From positions 1 to 40,878 of the IMG/VR virus record IMGVR_UViG_2541047787_000006: a stretch of 40,878 nucleotides of DNA. The stretch is one strand, 5' to 3'. Both the position numbers and the translations under genes were made by a program. This stretch comes from a virus. Lineage: Duplodnaviria; Heunggongvirae; Uroviricota; Caudoviricetes. This document shows, one piece after another, positions 5,637 through 35,547 of this stretch. The notes under the pieces are model-generated. The model saw nothing but the letters and a program-made list of their open reading frames with translations. It did not search any database and was not told the DNA's origin. Positions within the stretch are counted from its first letter, which is position 1; each line of letters opens with the position of its first letter.

Positions 5637-5651
5637 TTACCTTTCAGGTGA
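5637..5651. promoter_or_regulatory. Operator-like palindrome TTACCTTTCAGGTGA
   Basis: Matches the TTACC-N5-GGTAA family found in the immunity region; an extra TTACC half-site lies at 5587-5591. Confidence 0.45.
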
Positions 5652-5706: not shown

Positions 5707-5727
5707 TTATTGCATGGAGAAGATAAG

Positions 5728-5985
5728 ATGCAGCAGTATCACTATCCACTGGAAGACGGATTTACCGAAAGGATTCACACGCCGGGAGGCGTCAGGTCAC
5801 TGGTGGAGGGATCGCACTTGATGAAATTACTCCGGGATCTCGATAAGGATGGATTTAATGTCGATGGCCCACTTGCCGAACTGACTGCACTGATTAACTA
5901 CGTCACCAGCTCACAGATGTCTATGCAGGATCTGCAAACACATCTCGACTATTGTGCCGAACAATTACGAAAACAAACCCGGTAA
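5728..5985 (+). CDS. Small protein homologous to the C-terminal domain of the antirepressor at 7373-8029; candidate SOS-induced antirepressor
   Basis: GGAGA RBS 7 nt upstream; product IHTPGGVRSLVEGSHLMKLL..DLQTH aligns with [25 protein letters not shown] of the 7373 protein; the ORF track start at 5710 is TTG without an RBS. Confidence 0.5.
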   Translation: MQQYHYPLEDGFTERIHTPGGVRSLVEGSHLMKLLRDLDKDGFNVDGPLAELTALINYVTSSQMSMQDLQTHLDYCAEQLRKQTR

Positions 5986-6009: not shown

Positions 6010-6516
6010 TTAACAGTCGTAAAATTCCGGGTCCCACAAACTTGCATCGCGCGGCATGGATTCTAAATTTTTCAGCCGCAAAATTCTGTCACACTCGACA
6101 AGAAGTTTTTGTTTTTGTTCGTCAATTTCTACTTTTTTGTGTGCTGGCTCATCCCAGTAATCCAGAAGAAACGCATGTCGCTCAGACGTTACAAGATAAA
6201 TCACATACACATCACTGGTTGGTATTTTTTTATGCTTGTTGGTGGCCTTGTCTTTCTTCCCGGATGCCCAGTTTTTCCAGCATTGTTCCGTACCGCTCTC
6301 ACCAAACTTGTCAGTATAGTTTCCGATGTTTACGTGAACGTGGCGTATGTGATATTCCAGCATCTCTTTCGGTGGATCCCGAAACAGAGTGTCCTTTCCG
6401 AAATCCTTATGATGACCGTAGCGCCAGTGATCTATGAACGCGTTTTTGATAGGTATTAGCTCAGGGTCCTTCCCAAAAATTCCAGGGTGAACCAACCCCT
6501 GGAATTTATTCAGCAT
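6010..6516 (-). CDS. YafO-like toxin-domain protein (putative mRNA interferase-type toxin), module 1
   Basis: Motifs FGKD..F.DP, RHVHVN, IPTSD, VIYLVT and EPAHK resemble the YafO family as recalled from memory; paralogous to 8331-8876; start ATG at 6516 overlaps the upstream stop (ATGCTGAATAA). Confidence 0.45.
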   Translation of the reverse strand: MLNKFQGLVHPGIFGKDPELIPIKNAFIDHWRYGHHKDFGKDTLFRDPPKEMLEYHIRHVHVNIGNYTDKFGESGTEQCWKNWASGKKDKATNKHKKIPTSDVYVIYLVTSERHAFLLDYWDEPAHKKVEIDEQKQKLLVECDRILRLKNLESMPRDASLWDPEFYDC

Positions 6517-6925
6517 CGTCGTAGAGCTCCTGAGCCATATCTTCGGCAGTGCGTGCAAACATCCTGCGCGAGATTGCATGAGATTTCTCGACGGACATCT
6601 TTGGGACCTCATGCATAACATTTTTGGGAGTTGTGTAATAGCCTATTACAATTTTCACACCTGACTTATGATTAATATCAGCATAATATACTTCTTGTTC
6701 AGACGTTTCACGACGAACATAATCTGCCAGTTTTCCACATTTAAATTCCCCTCCCTGATGTTTTAAAATCTCCTCAACTGCACTATTTTCAGTGAAATAC
6801 CGAATAAGAAATTTCTGTCCAGTCTCTTCAGCATGAGGTATAACAGTATTATTGGAAGCCCGAACAATGGCCTTACTCAATATTTCATGGTCTTTATTTT
6901 TTTCTGATTTCCTCAAATGCTGCAT
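6506..6925 (-). CDS. Upstream partner of toxin-like gene (candidate antitoxin or immunity protein), no recognisable family
   Basis: 139 aa from the ATG at 6925; overlaps the downstream start by 11 nt; C-terminal tail KMSVEKSHAISRRMFARTAEDMAQELYDDAE resembles the tail of the 8177 small ORF. Confidence 0.4.
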   Translation of the reverse strand: MQHLRKSEKNKDHEILSKAIVRASNNTVIPHAEETGQKFLIRYFTENSAVEEILKHQGGEFKCGKLADYVRRETSEQEVYYADINHKSGVKIVIGYYTTPKNVMHEVPKMSVEKSHAISRRMFARTAEDMAQELYDDAE

Positions 6926-6961
6926 TACTGTAGCTCTCTTCGTGTTCACGGGCACCCCCAA

Positions 6962-7057: not shown

Positions 7058-7101
7058 TTGAAATAACGTGAGTTATGCATTTATTATTACCTTTGCGGTA
7101 A
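7058..7101 (+). promoter_or_regulatory. Sigma70-like promoter (TTGAAA-N17-TTATTA) with overlapping operator TTACCTTTGCGGTAA at 7087-7101
   Basis: Hexamers read directly; perfect TTACC-N5-GGTAA dyad at the predicted transcription start. Confidence 0.5.
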
Positions 7102-7192
7102 ATTTACATCGCACTCCTCTTGTGCCATAGTAATCGGGCACTGGCAAAATCCAGTGCCGGGATTGGTCTCCCGGATTACTAAGTGGCGCATA

Positions 7193-7214
7193 CCACGCCA
7201 GACGTGGTTTTTTT
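7193..7214 (+). terminator. Rho-independent terminator inside the antirepressor leader
   Basis: Stem CCACG / CGTGG, loop CCAGA, followed by seven T; about 120 nt downstream of the 7058 promoter and 160 nt upstream of the 7373 start. Confidence 0.55.
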
Positions 7215-7372
7215 ATGCGTATAGCACAGTCATGCCAGAATTATGGTGGGCTGAATGGGGGTCCGAAAGGACGCCGGTACCACTTAGGCCGGTAAGACCA
7301 ACTCCGTTCAGTTCACCACCATCTGATTGGTCTCAGCGGTGGTGATGTAATTCGCTAAGTGGAGACGCCATC

Positions 7373-8029
7373 ATGAACGCTCAACTCATCCCCGTATTCA
7401 ACGGCACTATATCTAACGAAACAGCCCTACTTTGTAATGCCCGCGATCTGCACGCTTTTTTAGGTGTTAAAAAGGTGTTTGCAGCATGGATTACAAATCG
7501 CATATCAGAATACGAATTCATTGAAAATCAAGACTATATTTTGCTTTCCAATTTGGGAAAGCAAACATCTGGTAGAGGCGGCCACAACCGCAAAGAGTAC
7601 CACCTTACCCTTGATACAGCCAAAGAGCTGGCGATGGTCGAGCGTAACGAAAAAGGTCGCCAGGTGCGACGCTACTTCATTGAATGCGAGAAACGTTTAA
7701 GACAACAAGAAACAAAAGTGGAGAAGGTCTTGTCAGGCTTCATGCCCGCCATTATGGAGGCGATCAAGCTGGAAGACAAAAAAGAATACAGTGCCCCGCT
7801 GAAGCCCGGCTACCGCAGCCTGATTCATTCTCCGTCTGGTGTTCTCGGCCTGACGGAAAACTCACTGCTGATGAATCTGCTGAACCAGTTACAGGAAGAC
7901 GGGCACGACGTATCGGGCGCGGCGGCGGAGCTGACCACCATGTTCTGCTACATCGTCGGTGTGAGCAAATGCCTGCGTGATATCCAGACCCACGCGGAGT
8001 ACATCAACGACAAGGCTGGGTTCTTCTGA
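7373..8029 (+). CDS. Antirepressor, AntA/AntB-type N-terminal domain plus C-terminal domain shared with the 5728 protein
   Basis: N-terminal [34 protein letters not shown] matches the AntA antirepressor pattern; GGAG RBS at 7361. Confidence 0.7.
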
Positions 8030-8176: not shown

Positions 8177-8356
8177 ATGCGAAACGAAAAATTGCAGATG
8201 CGTAGAGCGCAAGCTGCCGCAAGACGTTCTTTCAATGGAAGCGTAGAGTACGTAAAAGTTACTATGACAAAAGATCACGCAAGTCGCGTATCCAGCGCTT
8301 TCTTTGATTCTCGTAACAATAAGGAAAATTATGAGTTCGTCTGCGTCGCAGAATGA
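8177..8356 (+). CDS. Small 59-aa protein overlapping the start of toxin-like gene (candidate antitoxin), module 2
   Basis: Not in the ORF track (under 60 aa); GAGG RBS at 8166-8169, ATG at 8177; overlaps the 8331 gene by 26 nt; tail KVTMTKDHASRVSSAFF...VAE resembles the C-terminus of the 6506-6925 product. Confidence 0.35.
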   Translation: MRNEKLQMRRAQAAARRSFNGSVEYVKVTMTKDHASRVSSAFFDSRNNKENYEFVCVAE

Positions 8357-8876
8357 TAAAAATCAAATTGTCAGATATAAGGGTCGAGTATTGCATACGC
8401 AAAATTTCTCGGCCCTTTGTGCATCTGATCTTGAGCTGAAGAAAGTATCTGATGCCTTTGCCCAGTATTGGAAAACGGGATACCATCCATCTCTTGGTAA
8501 AGATGCTGCATTTGCTCGTCCGACAGAAATGCTTAAACTAAATGTCAGGCATACTCATGTCGATAACCAAGACTATATTCCAGAAGATAGTGATAAAAAA
8601 CACACTGGTAAAAAATCATCTTGGGATGCATGGAAAAATATAGCGTCTGTACAAGTAAAATGCATACCAACAAGTGATTGCTTTTTAGTTTATTCGGTAA
8701 ATCACAATCGTGATGCGCTGGTTATGTTTTTTGTTGACGCAGATGCTCACAACATAACTGAGCAAGAAGAGTTTAAAGAGGCAGCAATCACTATCAGTTA
8801 TCAATTCTTTGAGAAAACAAAAACAGAACCAATGCCTTTAGAAGAAGATCTTTTTTCTGATAAATGGAAGGAATAG
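8331..8876 (+). CDS. YafO-like toxin-domain protein, module 2 (paralog of 6010-6516)
   Basis: AAGGA RBS 5 nt upstream of the ATG at 8331; shares W.TGYH, LGKD..F.RP.EML, RHTHVD, IPTSD, LVYSV and DAHN motifs with the 6010 product. Confidence 0.45.
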   Translation: MSSSASQNDKNQIVRYKGRVLHTQNFSALCASDLELKKVSDAFAQYWKTGYHPSLGKDAAFARPTEMLKLNVRHTHVDNQDYIPEDSDKKHTGKKSSWDAWKNIASVQVKCIPTSDCFLVYSVNHNRDALVMFFVDADAHNITEQEEFKEAAITISYQFFEKTKTEPMPLEEDLFSDKWKE

Positions 8877-26242: not shown

Positions 26243-26319
26243 GTGGCATTAGCTCAGTTGGACAGAGCAACCGCCTTCTAAGCGGTTGGTCGCAGGTTCG
26301 AATCCTGCATGCCACGCCA
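26243..26319 (+). tRNA. tRNA-Arg, anticodon UCU
   Basis: Cloverleaf read by hand: acceptor GTGGCAT/ATGCCAC, D-arm GCTC..GAGC, anticodon stem ACCGC/GCGGT with loop CTTCTAA, T-arm GCAGG-TTCGAAT-CCTGC, discriminator G and CCA. Confidence 0.85.
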
Positions 26320-33414: not shown

Positions 33415-34211
33415 GCTTCAGGGCTGTTCCAGTGCGGAACGTTGTTATCAGGTAATGTTGATTGCTTCTGTCTGCTAATCTGCAGCCGCCTTGCCAGCTT
33501 CTGCTCCCACTGTGCCTGATGGTATGCCTTACCCTCAGCCATCCAGTAAATTCTGAACTCTGCAAGTTCCTGTGCCGTTGGCAGACTGTCCAGGTAGATC
33601 CCCTGCAATGAGCTTTTCCGAAGAAAGTCATCTGATGGCTGCCATTGTTCATGCATGACAAATTTGCCTAATTGCCCTGGCCCACCAGGAGGAACAAAGT
33701 TATTCATCACGGCGTTGTTTGCACCGGGGTCATGAGGCACAGAATCCCCGCTTTTTGTCCTGCTCTCCCTCTCTTGGTTAAATGACTGGTTATATGACTG
33801 GTTCTGGATCCCGTTTTTGGGATCATTCAACATCCCGTTTTTGGGATCATTCAACATCCCGTTTTTGGGTATATTCCCGTTTTCGGTAACATTACCGTTT
33901 TCGGGTTCATTGCCCCCCTCCCGGTTGCCTTTAATGTTCCCGTTTTTGGTTATATTAAGAGAGAAAACCCGCACTCTTTTTGTCGCTCCCTTTCTCTCTC
34001 CGGTATCTGAAATAAGCCCCATTTTCATGAGCGATATAAGCCCGGCCTGCACGGTTTTTTTATTCAGGCAAGTGTCTTTAACGAGGCGTTCTATGCTGGG
34101 GTAGCAGAGGTTATATTCATCGGCTCTGTCAGCTATCGAGAGCAGTATGAGCTTTAATGATGAGCTACCTGGATCTGTCTCCCAGGCCCAATCTGTTGCA
34201 TGTCTGCTCAT
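33396..34211 (-). CDS. Replication initiator, O-like winged-helix N-terminus, with iterons inside the gene
   Basis: N-terminal LKLILLSIADRADEYNLCYPSIERLVKD..GLI winged-helix pattern; internal repeated NG..N peptide encoded by the iteron DNA. Confidence 0.7.
   Translation of the reverse strand: MSRHATDWAWETDPGSSSLKLILLSIADRADEYNLCYPSIERLVKDTCLNKKTVQAGLISLMKMGLISDTGERKGATKRVRVFSLNITKNGNIKGNREGGNEPENGNVTENGNIPKNGMLNDPKNGMLNDPKNGIQNQSYNQSFNQERESRTKSGDSVPHDPGANNAVMNNFVPPGGPGQLGKFVMHEQWQPSDDFLRKSSLQGIYLDSLPTAQELAEFRIYWMAEGKAYHQAQWEQKLARRLQISRQKQSTLPDNNVPHWNSPEAWEDFL
33808..33956. repeat. Iteron array (candidate replication origin) inside the O-like gene
   Basis: About six copies of (T/A)(T/A)CCCGTTTT(T/C)GG; the first three have an exact 24-bp period, two of them identical ATCCCGTTTTTGGGATCATTCAAC. 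Confidence 0.7.
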
Positions 34212-34226
34212 GATTAATCTCCGCTA

Positions 34227-34463
34227 TCAGCTTGAATGTTGTGGGGAGGAATTAATCATGATCTGCTTAATCTCTGCCCTGATGCGACGGTTTGATTCCA
34301 TGGTGCACTCAACACAGTGTCCGTTGTAAACCCAGCGTTCACTGTCATGTCCGTGCTTACATTGTTTTCCGGTGTAATAGCGTTTAAGTCCGCGCTTTGC
34401 GGCATCAATACGTGTAATGATTTCCATGGTAAGCCCTGTTATTAGTATTGGGATTACGGTCAT
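34227..34463 (-). CDS. Small Cys/His-rich (zinc-ribbon-like) protein in the cII-equivalent position
   Basis: Motif KQCKHGHDSERWVYNGHCVEC; start uncertain (ATG at 34463 or 34427). Confidence 0.4.
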   Translation of the reverse strand: MTVIPILITGLTMEIITRIDAAKRGLKRYYTGKQCKHGHDSERWVYNGHCVECTMESNRRIRAEIKQIMINSSPQHSS

Positions 34464-34962: not shown

Positions 34963-35547
34963 ATGAAAAGTATCCAGGACGTCCGCAGGCAAAATCTCAA
35001 CGACTTGATCGACCGTGAATTCAATGGTGTTCAGACGCGGATGGCAGAAAAACTTGGAACTCAGGCAAATCTGGTAAACCGCTGGGCTCTTGGCAAGAAG
35101 GTTATCGGCGACCAGGTTGCGCGAAAAATTGAAGCTGCCGCAAATAAACCCCGTAACTGGCTTGATATCGATCGCTCGCTTTCTCAGGAGGGTTTTCAGC
35201 CTGTCGGCCCAAGCGACATTGGTCAGCTGGCGGCTCACAACCTGGAACGCTGGATGAGCGAAAGCCGCGACCTTTCAACTCAGGGAAAACTTCACCGCGC
35301 ATCCGGCGTCGCCCAGGTGACAATCAGCCGCCTGTTAAACAATGAGGTCAGCGTTTCCATTTCCACCCTGGAGAATGTTGCATCCGCATTCGGGCGTCAC
35401 GGCTATGAATTACTGATTCACCCGCACGACCCTGCGACTATCAACTATGATCGCTCGCGCTACGCATTGTTACCCGAAACCGAGAAAGCAAAGATCGAAA
35501 GTTACATTGAATTTGTCATCAACCAGAACGAAAAAAACAAACAATAA
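34963..35547 (+). CDS. Prophage repressor candidate with two HTH motifs and no peptidase domain
   Basis: Two HTH-like segments (QANLVNRWALGKK and GVAQVTISRLLNNE); no recognisable S24-type cleavage module; divergent from cro. Confidence 0.55.
   Translation: MKSIQDVRRQNLNDLIDREFNGVQTRMAEKLGTQANLVNRWALGKKVIGDQVARKIEAAANKPRNWLDIDRSLSQEGFQPVGPSDIGQLAAHNLERWMSESRDLSTQGKLHRASGVAQVTISRLLNNEVSVSISTLENVASAFGRHGYELLIHPHDPATINYDRSRYALLPETEKAKIESYIEFVINQNEKNKQ

Follow-up and report, generated by a model that had tools for sequence, protein, structure and literature searches.

In the immunity operon immI of phages P1 and P7 (c4-icd-ant1/2), as outlined by Citron and Schuster (1990, 1992), the RNA C4 has two pairs of targets, a1/b1 and a2/b2, and competition of a1b1 for C4 was proposed for P1 in 1990. 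C4 of P1 is annotated as a 77-nt misc_RNA (GenBank AF234172). It is excised from the leader transcript in P1 and forms a stable antisense RNA of 77 nt. Its 5' end is made by RNase P. A second described system is the isrK-orf45-anrP locus of the Salmonella prophage Gifsy-1 (Hershko-Shalev et al., 2016; PMC4825925), where IsrK is an experimentally detected sRNA. Hfq binding and activation of antirepressor translation in trans are known only for Gifsy-1, and its locus was read in that study by analogy with CI/seqA of P4, without mention of P1 c4 (PMC4825925).

The window, that is the whole stretch of 40,878 nucleotides that was analysed, is an Escherichia coli phiV10/epsilon15-like (Uetakevirus) prophage. 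Its region 7058-7372 is very probably the regulatory leader of an immunity module of the P1/P7 immI type, of the same kind as the Gifsy-1 isrK locus. Three parts are predicted for the module: a short RNA of the IsrK type, a terminator, and an antisense RNA of the C4 type, which would mask the ribosome binding site (RBS) of an antirepressor gene. The structured leader of the preliminary description is a copy, so far unannotated, of an immunity module well known from phages and not a new attenuator. Every feature listed in that description could be located in the sequence, well above what chance would give. The module found in the region supports the earlier view that this is not a simple 5' untranslated region. 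It is real and functional-looking, but ordinary and of an already known kind. All features given below are on the plus strand unless stated otherwise.

Between 7239 and 7323 the window contains an 85-nt match to the C4 antisense RNA family (Rfam RF01695, clan CL00128; 61.2 bits at a threshold of 45, E = 1.3e-9) that covers the model over its full length (1-87). From the alignment with the annotated 77-nt C4 of P1, the mature RNA is predicted to extend from about 7245 to 7320. Its predicted fold consists of a 17-bp closing stem, a GAAA-capped (GNRA) hairpin, a second hairpin that presents b' (CCACTTAG, 7280-7287) in a 9-nt loop, and a single-stranded junction with a' (AGACCAA, 7295-7301), both a' and b' being unpaired. 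A segment occurring twice (7161-7186 and 7325-7362) had been noticed earlier, and it was indeed found as GATTGGTCTC at 7161-7170 and 7325-7334 followed by CTAAGTGG at 7179-7186 and 7355-7362. What had been missed is the C4-type RNA between the two copies, with the exact complements a' and b' inside it. The segment would be present twice because its copies are the predicted upstream (a1/b1, 7163-7186) and downstream (a2/b2, 7327-7362) pairing sites of C4. Both a1 (7163-7169) and a2 (7327-7333) read TTGGTCT, the complement of a'. The b1 site (7179-7186) can form a duplex of -14.2 kcal/mol with b', and b2 (7355-7362) overlaps a Shine-Dalgarno sequence, GGAG (7361-7364), the two together spanning 7355-7364. 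The complements are exact and in the right order and orientation, over 7 nt for a1/a'/a2 and over 8 nt for b1/b'/b2. The composite TTGGTCT-N(5-35)-CTAAGTGG occurs exactly three times in the 40.9 kb (0.00 expected), twice on the plus strand and once on the minus strand at 7280-7301, where its complement is on the transcribed strand. When C4 was folded with its target or with the IsrK-like RNA in RNAcofold, ddG was about 0 and no better than for shuffled sequences. This result is uninformative rather than negative, because loop-loop and pseudoknotted pairing cannot be represented in such a calculation; site-level duplex energies with cross-locus controls were used instead.

Upstream of C4 a 77-nt stretch (7138-7214) matches the IsrK family, with c4-a1b1 character (Rfam RF01394, 67.7 bits at a threshold of 50, E = 1.6e-12). 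It contains hairpin P1 (7138-7157), hairpin P2 (7158-7173) with a1 in its loop, a linker with b1 and an intrinsic terminator. The c4-a1b1 model itself (RF03163) overlaps the same hairpins at 39.9 bits, which is under its threshold of 46.7. Other Rfam matches below threshold (RT-7, snoRNAs, gut-2) were treated as chance. The terminator, reported earlier at 7193-7214, was found with a stem at 7192-7208 (ACCACG-CCAGA-CGTGGT) and seven T up to 7214; from there it is 159 nt to the ATG at 7373. Of 100 unique viral leaders, 98 have a run of five or more T in the corresponding place. The terminator splits the transcripts into short and read-through forms, and a short terminated RNA of the IsrK family is the expected main product.

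The length of this RNA depends on the promoter. A proximal promoter (TTTACA-17-CATAGT with an extended -10 TG, 7103-7131), analogous to P51b of P1 and to the isrK promoter, predicts a transcription start near 7137/7138. It had been overlooked in the preliminary description and is the phylogenetically conserved one of the two: among 109 unique upstream regions a -10-like hexamer begins 12 nt 5' of the first hairpin in 106, the window included, and a -35 of the TTGACA/TTTACA type stands at a fixed upstream distance in most. Computationally, an IsrK-type RNA with a promoter of its own and a start at the first hairpin is thereby predicted. The promoter and operator that had been proposed at 7058-7101 were both found as well. 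The former is a distal promoter-like site (TTGAAA-18-TATTAT, 7058-7087, 10/12 matches), analogous to P51a of P1, that is kept only in the Uetakevirus-like subgroup of leaders. Of the earlier proposal of a small RNA of about 120 nt, the short terminated RNA is retained, but the conserved promoter predicts 77 nt from near 7138, and a 121-nt RNA would arise solely from the distal promoter.

The operator-like palindrome TTACCTTTGCGGTAA (7087-7101, no strand assigned) belongs to the motif TTACC-N5-GGTAA, which has 14 sites in the window against 0.68 expected. Sites of this motif also flank an ORF resembling an HTH_3 repressor (34963-35547) together with a TTGACA/CATAAT promoter. The palindrome is inferred to be the binding site of the prophage repressor. 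The last base of the distal -10 hexamer (7087) and the distal transcription start lie within it, and its end is 1 bp short of the proximal -35 hexamer. The tandem promoter-like sites with the enriched palindrome between them can be compared with the P1 type, in which the upstream promoter is under an operator of the primary repressor. An inverted repeat in the spacer of the distal promoter, ATAACGTGAGTTAT (7063-7076), was also considered as operator. It is present in one exact copy and its near-matches are not enriched, for which reason TTACC-N5-GGTAA was preferred.

Conservation was studied in a consensus structure of 78 homologues and, for co-variation, in about 100 unique viral leaders. The covariance search that had been suggested for related prophages gave conserved helices with compensatory changes in 18 of 34 consensus base pairs, located among others in the first hairpin of the IsrK-type RNA and in the closing stem and first hairpin of C4. 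For the a sites, a1 and a2 both equal the reverse complement of a' in 94 of the 96 unique viral leaders compared, with 8 alleles represented. Strong pairing to both b1 and b2 of the own locus was found for 53 of the 59 distinct b' loops. The b'-b1 energy was -11.9 kcal/mol within a locus vs -6.1 across loci, and the b'-b2 energy was -14.4 vs -8.8 kcal/mol. A disruptive change in b', for instance CCACTTAG to CCAGTTAG, is predicted to be derepressing. Downstream of a2, GGTGGTGA (7338-7345) could pair with its complement TCACCACC (7313-7320) in the 3' strand of the closing stem of C4, and a2 would then lie in the loop of this alternative helix. Of 98 leaders, 84 have such complementarity over at least 7 nt, and the variants match each other, as in CATCACC/GGTGATGG and CGCCACC/GGTGGCGA.

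The co-variation bears on the possibility that the 77-nt RNA is mainly an Hfq-dependent sRNA directed at host mRNAs, with its complementarity to C4 as a secondary matter. Such a role would agree with the name of the Rfam family ('isrK Hfq binding RNA') and with the terminator and its U tail, a typical Hfq-binding module. A host target would, however, hold a1 and b1 constant, so that this role is disfavoured: the sites are variable and track the C4 of their own locus, not a host sequence. A principal function on host mRNAs is improbable, although an action of this kind would be compatible with the explanation by C4.

The same sites argue against a module that is merely the inactive relic of a decaying prophage. 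The module is unannotated in RefSeq and in phage GenBank records and two toxin-like cassettes are inserted around it, as might be expected of a relic. However, none of the six pairing sites has a mismatch, the reading frame of ant is intact and the phage record phiv142-3 has a leader of 100% identity, which makes decay very unlikely. Similar leaders are present in 467 of 5426 complete E. coli genomes. When 596 Gb were scanned genome-wide with a 16-base pattern, 120 matches were obtained, mostly in Gammaproteobacteria (Pseudomonas, Vibrio, Aeromonas, Xanthomonas, Enterobacterales and others). Only 39 of them had the full architecture, many of the others being expected chance matches to a pattern of 16 bases.

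The leader had originally been thought to contain two hairpins that share sequence and are mutually exclusive, as in a transcription attenuator. Two hairpins are present (7138-7157 and 7158-7173), but they share no sequence: they abut, contest at most nucleotide 7158 and form together in the minimum free energy (MFE) fold as well as in the consensus of the 78 homologues. Folding, which had been suggested as a check, gave energies far below those of shuffled sequences, both over 7094-7214 (z = -5.85) and over 7094-7390 (z = -5.94). In the MFE fold an optional 'third stem' is formed by a 5' arm (7121-7135) that pairs with 7173-7190 and masks b1, with a duplex energy of -20.2 kcal/mol. Only transcripts that start at the distal promoter contain this arm. 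A comparable extra stem is called 'sometimes found' in the supplement of Weinberg (2010). A classical attenuator, in which alternative 5' hairpins would decide between terminator and antiterminator and control would lie purely at read-through into ant, could draw on the strong terminator 159 nt upstream of ant. It could also draw on the 8-fold rise that Gifsy-1 IsrK in trans caused in a transcriptional fusion (PMC4825925), so that some control of read-through or mRNA stability exists in the family. The coexistence of the two stems removes the logic of competing hairpins, no conserved pairing competes with the terminator stem, and the three-way co-varying a and b sites and the fold of C4 are left unexplained. 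Attenuation of this type is therefore highly unlikely.

The gene downstream of the leader (7373-8029, 218 aa) belongs to the AntA family (Pfam PF08346, 91.8 bits) and is named 'phage antirepressor Ant' in RefSeq at a 99.8% identical E. coli locus. Its antirepressor function is presumed from family membership. It has its Shine-Dalgarno GGAG 8 nt upstream of the ATG. No ORF was found between C4 and ant in the window leader, where an icd-like ORF might have been located, so control must act directly on the RBS of ant. Among 85 viral leaders the first ORF has at least 100 codons in 69 and 62-86 codons in 16, and the icd-type ORF is a feature of the P1 operon, not of the RNA family. Other frames in the leader were rejected as genes. 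A GTG frame of 63 aa (7154-7345) has no Pfam match and spans the terminator and C4; frames from 7214, 7243 and 7255 have 26, 3 and 10 codons and are not conserved; and a 34-aa frame on the minus strand (7087-7191) was disregarded because all conservation follows the RNA pairing of the plus strand. The Gifsy-1 model as published, in which the short RNA opens the RBS of an orf45-type frame and ant is translated by coupling only, has the same RNA family, an AUG at the same position (7243) and the support for coupling in the Gifsy-1 data in its favour, but it is extremely unlikely here, given that the frame in the window (ATG GTG GGC TGA) stops after 3 codons, 118 nt short of the start of ant, that an orf45-like frame ending near the downstream start was found in only 26 of 82 classified leaders, with an early stop in 27, and that ant has a Shine-Dalgarno of its own.

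The following mechanism is proposed for the immI-type module. The sites named are observed in the window, and from their arrangement transcription would start mainly near 7138 from the promoter at 7103-7131, and perhaps also from that at 7058-7087, with the operator-like palindrome at 7087-7101 between them as one of the dispersed sites of the prophage repressor. Most transcripts would stop at 7192-7214 and yield the 77-nt IsrK-type RNA, with a1 in a hairpin loop and b1 just 3' of it, an RNA that has been demonstrated for the Gifsy-1 homologue. Transcripts that read through would carry the C4-type RNA (about 7245-7320), which may be excised as in P1. In the leader of ant, b2 would be paired by the b' loop of C4 and a2 by its a' junction, as their complementarity and co-variation suggest. 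Since b2 overlaps the Shine-Dalgarno, Ant would remain untranslated and the prophage repressor active; repression by C4 would correspond to what is described for P1 and Gifsy-1. The pairing should also work in trans when a superinfecting phage carries identical a/b alleles. The a1b1 RNA, which has the same two sites, may compete for C4 and so relieve repression. This competition is the least certain step; it is consistent with the activation of anrP translation by IsrK in trans, which exceeds 100-fold. The model requires that C4 be made in the lysogen, and the position of the operator 1 bp from the proximal -35 is a point against it.

A more elaborate possibility, to which we give a rather small chance, is that the leader acts as a self-contained RNA toggle in which the choice of promoter matters and one transcript exists in three states, as sponge, as antisense RNA and as target. 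The 77-nt a1b1 RNA from the proximal promoter, with b1 exposed, would be an active sponge for C4. In the transcript from the distal promoter the extra arm 7121-7135 would pair with 7173-7190 and hide b1. Because the operator overlaps the distal -10 and start, occupancy of 7087-7101 by the repressor would then govern both how much transcript is made and how active the decoy is. The alternative helix 7313-7320/7338-7345 may contribute to the three states.

Independently of this toggle, the immI-type module is a probable account of how the antirepressor of phiV10/epsilon15-like phages stays silent. For the annotation of a common type of E. coli prophage it means two further RNA genes, with their targets, that had not been annotated. 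The a/b alleles (TTGGTCT and CTAAGTGG in the window) predict which co-resident or superinfecting phages have the same anti-immunity specificity. The conceptual gain is small, because Rfam already contains the two RNA families and the idea that a1b1 competes dates from 1990.

Among the more distant systems, P4 immunity (CI, seqA and seqC) also uses a small RNA that is processed from the leader of its own operon and pairs upstream and downstream, but its outcome is premature termination of transcription of the replication genes and not occlusion of an antirepressor RBS, as is known from PMC4825925 and general background. No P4 family was among the Rfam matches. In the immI region of P22 the antisense RNA sar controls ant and keeps translation of this antirepressor off, as is proposed here for C4, but it is made from the strand opposite to its target (cis-antisense; PMC12197685). 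The antisense RNA of the window shares one strand with its targets, and the predicted pairing is through short sites dispersed along it. In the APSE phages of Hamiltonella (GenBank LR794147) isrK, C4, a' and b' are annotated upstream of a Bro-N gene. The two RNA families and their order upstream of an antirepressor-like gene are those of the window, but the downstream gene is of a different family than the AntA gene. The pairing of isrK with C4 is thus already recognized and annotated in APSE. Its authors treated IsrK and C4 as separate sRNAs and sought targets of C4 elsewhere in the genome, barring the region upstream of the adjacent Bro-N gene.

Gifsy-1 is much closer. Its locus matches isrK (79.3 bits), C4 (69 bits) and also c4-a1b1 in Rfam, and it shares with the window the isrK family, the position of the terminator, a C4 homologue in the same place and a b2 that overlaps the antirepressor Shine-Dalgarno. 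What is called orf45/STnc1160 scores as C4, the AUG of orf45 being the AUG at the C4 5' end. Numbered from the transcription start, set at 7138 in the window, the sites agree exactly with those of Gifsy-1 (a1 26-32, a' 158-164). The published mutations map to a1 (G28, G31), a' (C159, C162) and the closing stem of C4 (G114, G173, C175). The a' mutations C159U and C162U derepress anrP and raise its translation from 4 to 484-926 units, and IsrK in trans activates 114-171-fold, for which G28 and G31 are required (PMC4825925). In cis, the a1 mutations G28A and G31A derepress from 4 to 93-218 units, and compensatory double mutations partly restore repression (PMC4825925). This suggests that pairing of a1 with a' in cis also aids the repressed state or the biogenesis of C4, an effect that a pure 'a1b1 only decoy' model does not predict. 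The two loci differ in that a 45-codon frame, which was shown to require translation for control, extends in Gifsy-1 from the AUG of C4 as far as the start of anrP, whereas the frame in the window has 3 codons, and in that the window has the TTACC-N5-GGTAA operator and the distal promoter, which Gifsy-1 is without. By its match, 'orf45' of Gifsy-1 is a C4 RNA, which suggests that the mechanism of IsrK could be re-read as anti-antisense titration.

With P1 the module has the whole arrangement in common apart from the icd-type ORF. The immI region of P1 matches the same three Rfam models, and an operator or operator-like site, two promoters or promoter-like sites, a1, b1, a terminator-like hairpin, C4, a2, b2 and the first ORF follow each other in the same order. 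Both have two hairpins with a1 in the second loop, a' and b' in the same structural positions, b2 at the RBS of the first ORF, a known or predicted antirepressor as downstream product and dispersed operators, putative ones in the window, for the repressor, C1 in the case of P1. The icd-type ORF that is specific to P1 and P7 and needed there for ant expression is absent from the window, where b2 is directly on the RBS of ant; Ant is of the AntA family, unlike Ant1/Ant2 of P1; neither the operator sequence nor the repressor is related to its P1 counterpart; the a/b alleles are TTGGTCT/CTAAGTGG instead of TTTGACA/GTTAGTG; and the module is carried by a podovirus-type Uetakevirus and not by a plasmid prophage. 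The one point of wider interest is that IsrK of Salmonella and c4 of P1, each with a literature of its own, belong to one and the same module, so that the two literatures can be linked.

Searching the leader (7058-7372) upstream of ant against Rfam gave two plus-strand matches above the gathering threshold, one to isrK at 7138-7214 (67.7 bits) and one to the C4 antisense RNA at 7239-7323 (61.2 bits), together with a sub-threshold match to c4-a1b1 over two hairpins. The segment that the preliminary description had noted as a repeat is therefore a pair of C4 target sites; two copies each of GATTGGTCTC and CTAAGTGG were indeed found (7161-7186 and 7325-7362). In the nomenclature of P1, a1 (TTGGTCT, 7163-7169) lies in the loop of hairpin 2 and b1 (CTAAGTGG, 7179-7186) immediately past this hairpin. 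On the 3' side of C4 these are followed by a2 (TTGGTCT, 7327-7333) and by b2 (CTAAGTGG, 7355-7362), which overlaps the GGAG of ant. Within C4, b' (CCACTTAG, 7280-7287) lies in the loop of the second hairpin and a' (AGACCAA, 7295-7301) in the single-stranded junction, and both are unpaired in the predicted C4 fold. The 40.9 kb contain three occurrences of the composite TTGGTCT-N(5-35)-CTAAGTGG, against 0.00 expected; two are on the plus strand and the third, at 7280-7301, is in reverse complement. The leader belongs to a family that has been described since 1990 and for which curated Rfam models detect the window copy above threshold. The system is therefore already known, and this copy is simply unannotated.

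The elements proposed earlier were all recovered: a promoter-like site at 7058-7087, the operator-like palindrome TTACCTTTGCGGTAA at 7087-7101 and a terminator at 7192-7214. The two hairpins (7138-7157 and 7158-7173) are also present, but they are adjacent and form together instead of being mutually exclusive. Compared with shuffled sequences, the short and the long fold of the region both gained about 6 standard deviations in stability. The proposal of a short terminated RNA in place of a simple untranslated region holds, although it had overlooked the antisense RNA that organizes the whole region. Two further conserved pairings were found. Pairing of 7121-7135 with 7173-7190 would mask b1 in longer transcripts only. 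The other involves GGTGGTGA (7338-7345, between a2 and b2), which complements the 3' strand of the C4 closing stem (7313-7320) and would compete with this stem. Such complementarity of at least 7 nt was present in 84 of 98 leaders, the variants matching on both sides, and it could act as a switch between folded C4 and a hairpin presenting a2. Stems of both kinds have been described for the family, and the a2-presenting hairpin is a terminator in some genomes (supplement of Weinberg et al., 2010).

Scanning viral contigs with a pattern derived from the two hairpins yielded 120 loci, which reduced to about 100 unique leaders. The full order of hairpin 1, hairpin 2, b1, terminator, C4, a2, b2 and start codon was found in nearly all of these. 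In 94 of 96 leaders a1, the reverse complement of a' and a2 were identical, with 8 alleles represented; the two leaders with discordant a sites look like recombinants. The b' loops were far more diverse (59-60 distinct). An exact complement of b' of at least 7 nt was present in b2 in 78 of 96 leaders (8% for cross-locus pairings) and in b1 in 56 of 96 (3%). When G-U pairs were allowed, the mean duplex energy with the own-locus site was -11.9 kcal/mol for b1 and -14.4 kcal/mol for b2, compared with -6.1 and -8.8 kcal/mol across loci, and 53 of the 59 loop alleles paired strongly with both their own b1 and b2. Because the leaders are related to each other p-values are not strict, and the argument is carried by the number of independent alleles. 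RNAalifold on 78 sequences returned 34 pairs, 18 of which showed compensatory changes, in hairpin 1 and the C4 stems. The frame opened by the C4 AUG was not conserved among 82 classified leaders: it stopped early in 27 (after 3 codons in the window), was orf45-like in 26, ran past the start out of frame in 15 and was in frame with the downstream gene in 14. The first ORF past b2 had at least 100 codons in 69 of 85 leaders, including the window.

The module is spread across the Gammaproteobacteria, and of 5426 complete E. coli genomes 467 have it. Its full architecture was also seen in two contigs assigned to non-proteobacterial genomes, L135 (Parabacteroides goldsteinii) and L206 (a Solirubrobacteraceae MAG), likely as a result of contamination or mis-binning. 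Among the leaders that look recombinant, a1 deviates from a matching a'/a2 pair in L026 and L120, and a2 from a matching a1/a' pair in L086. Mixed allele combinations occur as well, the b allele of the window, CTAAGTGG, being combined with a = TTGGCGT in locus L061. This suggests modular shuffling of the specificity determinants. In about 13 leaders, terminator and C4 are separated by an insert of about 45 nt with a TATAAT-like hexamer, which may be a separate C4 promoter in a P1-like subtype; in seven viral contigs with the insert (L029, L083, L088, L102, L111, L115 and L117) the first ORF is icd-sized (63-65 codons).

Of 109 unique regions upstream of hairpin 1, 106 contain a -10-like hexamer that begins 12 nt ahead of it, and most have a TTGACA/TTTACA-type -35 at constant spacing farther upstream. 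This implies a conserved start at about 7138, which is position 1 of the isrK model. The promoter at 7058-7087 is conserved in the Uetakevirus-like subgroup only. The operator-like palindrome ends 1 bp from the -35 hexamer of the proximal promoter (7103-7131), a position that may bear on C4 synthesis in lysogens. Its pattern, TTACC-N5-GGTAA, occurs at 14 sites in the window (0.68 expected): 5637, 6962, 7087, 8102, 9351, 25906, 29089/29107, 32500/32562, 34845/34893 and 35605/35667. Sites on either side of an HTH_3 repressor-like ORF (34963-35547) also flank a strong promoter, and others are found at promoter-like regions across the prophage. This distribution suggests a set of dispersed operators comparable to that of P1 C1, and we infer that the palindrome is the putative operator of the HTH_3 protein.

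The region around the leader shares 98.8-100% identity with Escherichia phage phiv142-3 and 99.8% with a prophage of E. coli IMT16316; further relatives are phiV10, TL-2011b and Enterobacter phage Tyrion, all Uetakevirus. These phages carry the leader with the tail-fibre gene on one side and a gene annotated as anti-repressor or 'anti-immunity' on the other, and neither their records nor RefSeq annotate an RNA there. The ant ORF (7373-8029) encodes a predicted antirepressor of the AntA family, the C-terminal part of which (residues 134-210, 7772-8002, plus strand) is 44% identical to a stand-alone, epsilon15p19-like ORF of 91 aa (5710-5985, plus strand), located 1.4 kb upstream and preceded by the site at 5637. 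The ant module is flanked by two YafO-toxin-like cassettes (6010-6961, minus strand; 8177-8876, plus strand), each with a small upstream ORF and a palindrome site (6962 and 8102). Their toxins, both named YafO family toxins in RefSeq, are 31% identical to each other, and the upstream cassette is missing at the corresponding position of phiV10 and phiv142-3. A tRNA-Arg gene (anticodon TCT) is located within the prophage at 26243-26319 (plus strand).

The analysis itself shows the sites, which are complementary and co-vary, the folds, a conserved promoter and terminator, and a b2 site that overlaps the Shine-Dalgarno sequence. By analogy with P1 and Gifsy-1, C4 would be cut out as a stable RNA and would keep ant from being translated, both in cis and in trans. 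Competition for C4 by the 77-nt terminated RNA would promote Ant synthesis and induction, and the a and b alleles would set specificity classes.

In Gifsy-1 (NC_010392) the antQ-anrP intergenic region (isrK locus, 34131-34316, minus strand) matched isrK (79.3 bits), c4-a1b1 (48.1 bits) and, over the published 'orf45/STnc1160', C4 (69 bits). Counted from the isrK start, the mutated residues G28 and G31 fall in a1 (UUGGCGU, 26-32), C159 and C162 in a' (ACGCCAA, 158-164) and G114, G173 and C175 in the C4 closing stem, while A107, in the first AUG of 'orf45', belongs to the AUG at the C4 5' end. According to Hershko-Shalev et al. (2016; PMC4825925), anrP translation rises from 4 to 484-926 units when a' is mutated, IsrK supplied in trans gives 114-171-fold activation and does so only if G28 and G31 are intact, and 'orf45' yields STnc1160, a stable RNA of about 80 nt produced by processing. 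These data fit C4-type repression lifted by an a1b1 competitor, an idea proposed for P1 in 1990 (summarized in the supplement of Weinberg et al., 2010). Mutations of a1 in cis derepress too (4 to 93-218 units; PMC4825925), so a1:a' pairing in cis apparently has a part in keeping the gene repressed, and a pure decoy model does not fit this result. The same study likens the system to P4 CI/seqA and neither mentions nor cites P1 c4.

The annotated order in P1 immI (AF234172) is the C1 operator Op51, P51a, P51b, a1, b1, a terminator-like hairpin, C4 (77 nt), a2, b2, icd and ant1/2, and the same three Rfam models match it and the window. The window differs from P1 in having no icd-type ORF, an Ant from another protein family and an unrelated operator and repressor. 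It keeps the P1 order, including two tandem promoter-like sites and an operator-like palindrome, the spread of which resembles that of the dispersed C1 operators. A comparable arrangement is found in APSE-7, for which isrK, C4, a' and b' are already annotated next to one another in GenBank records.
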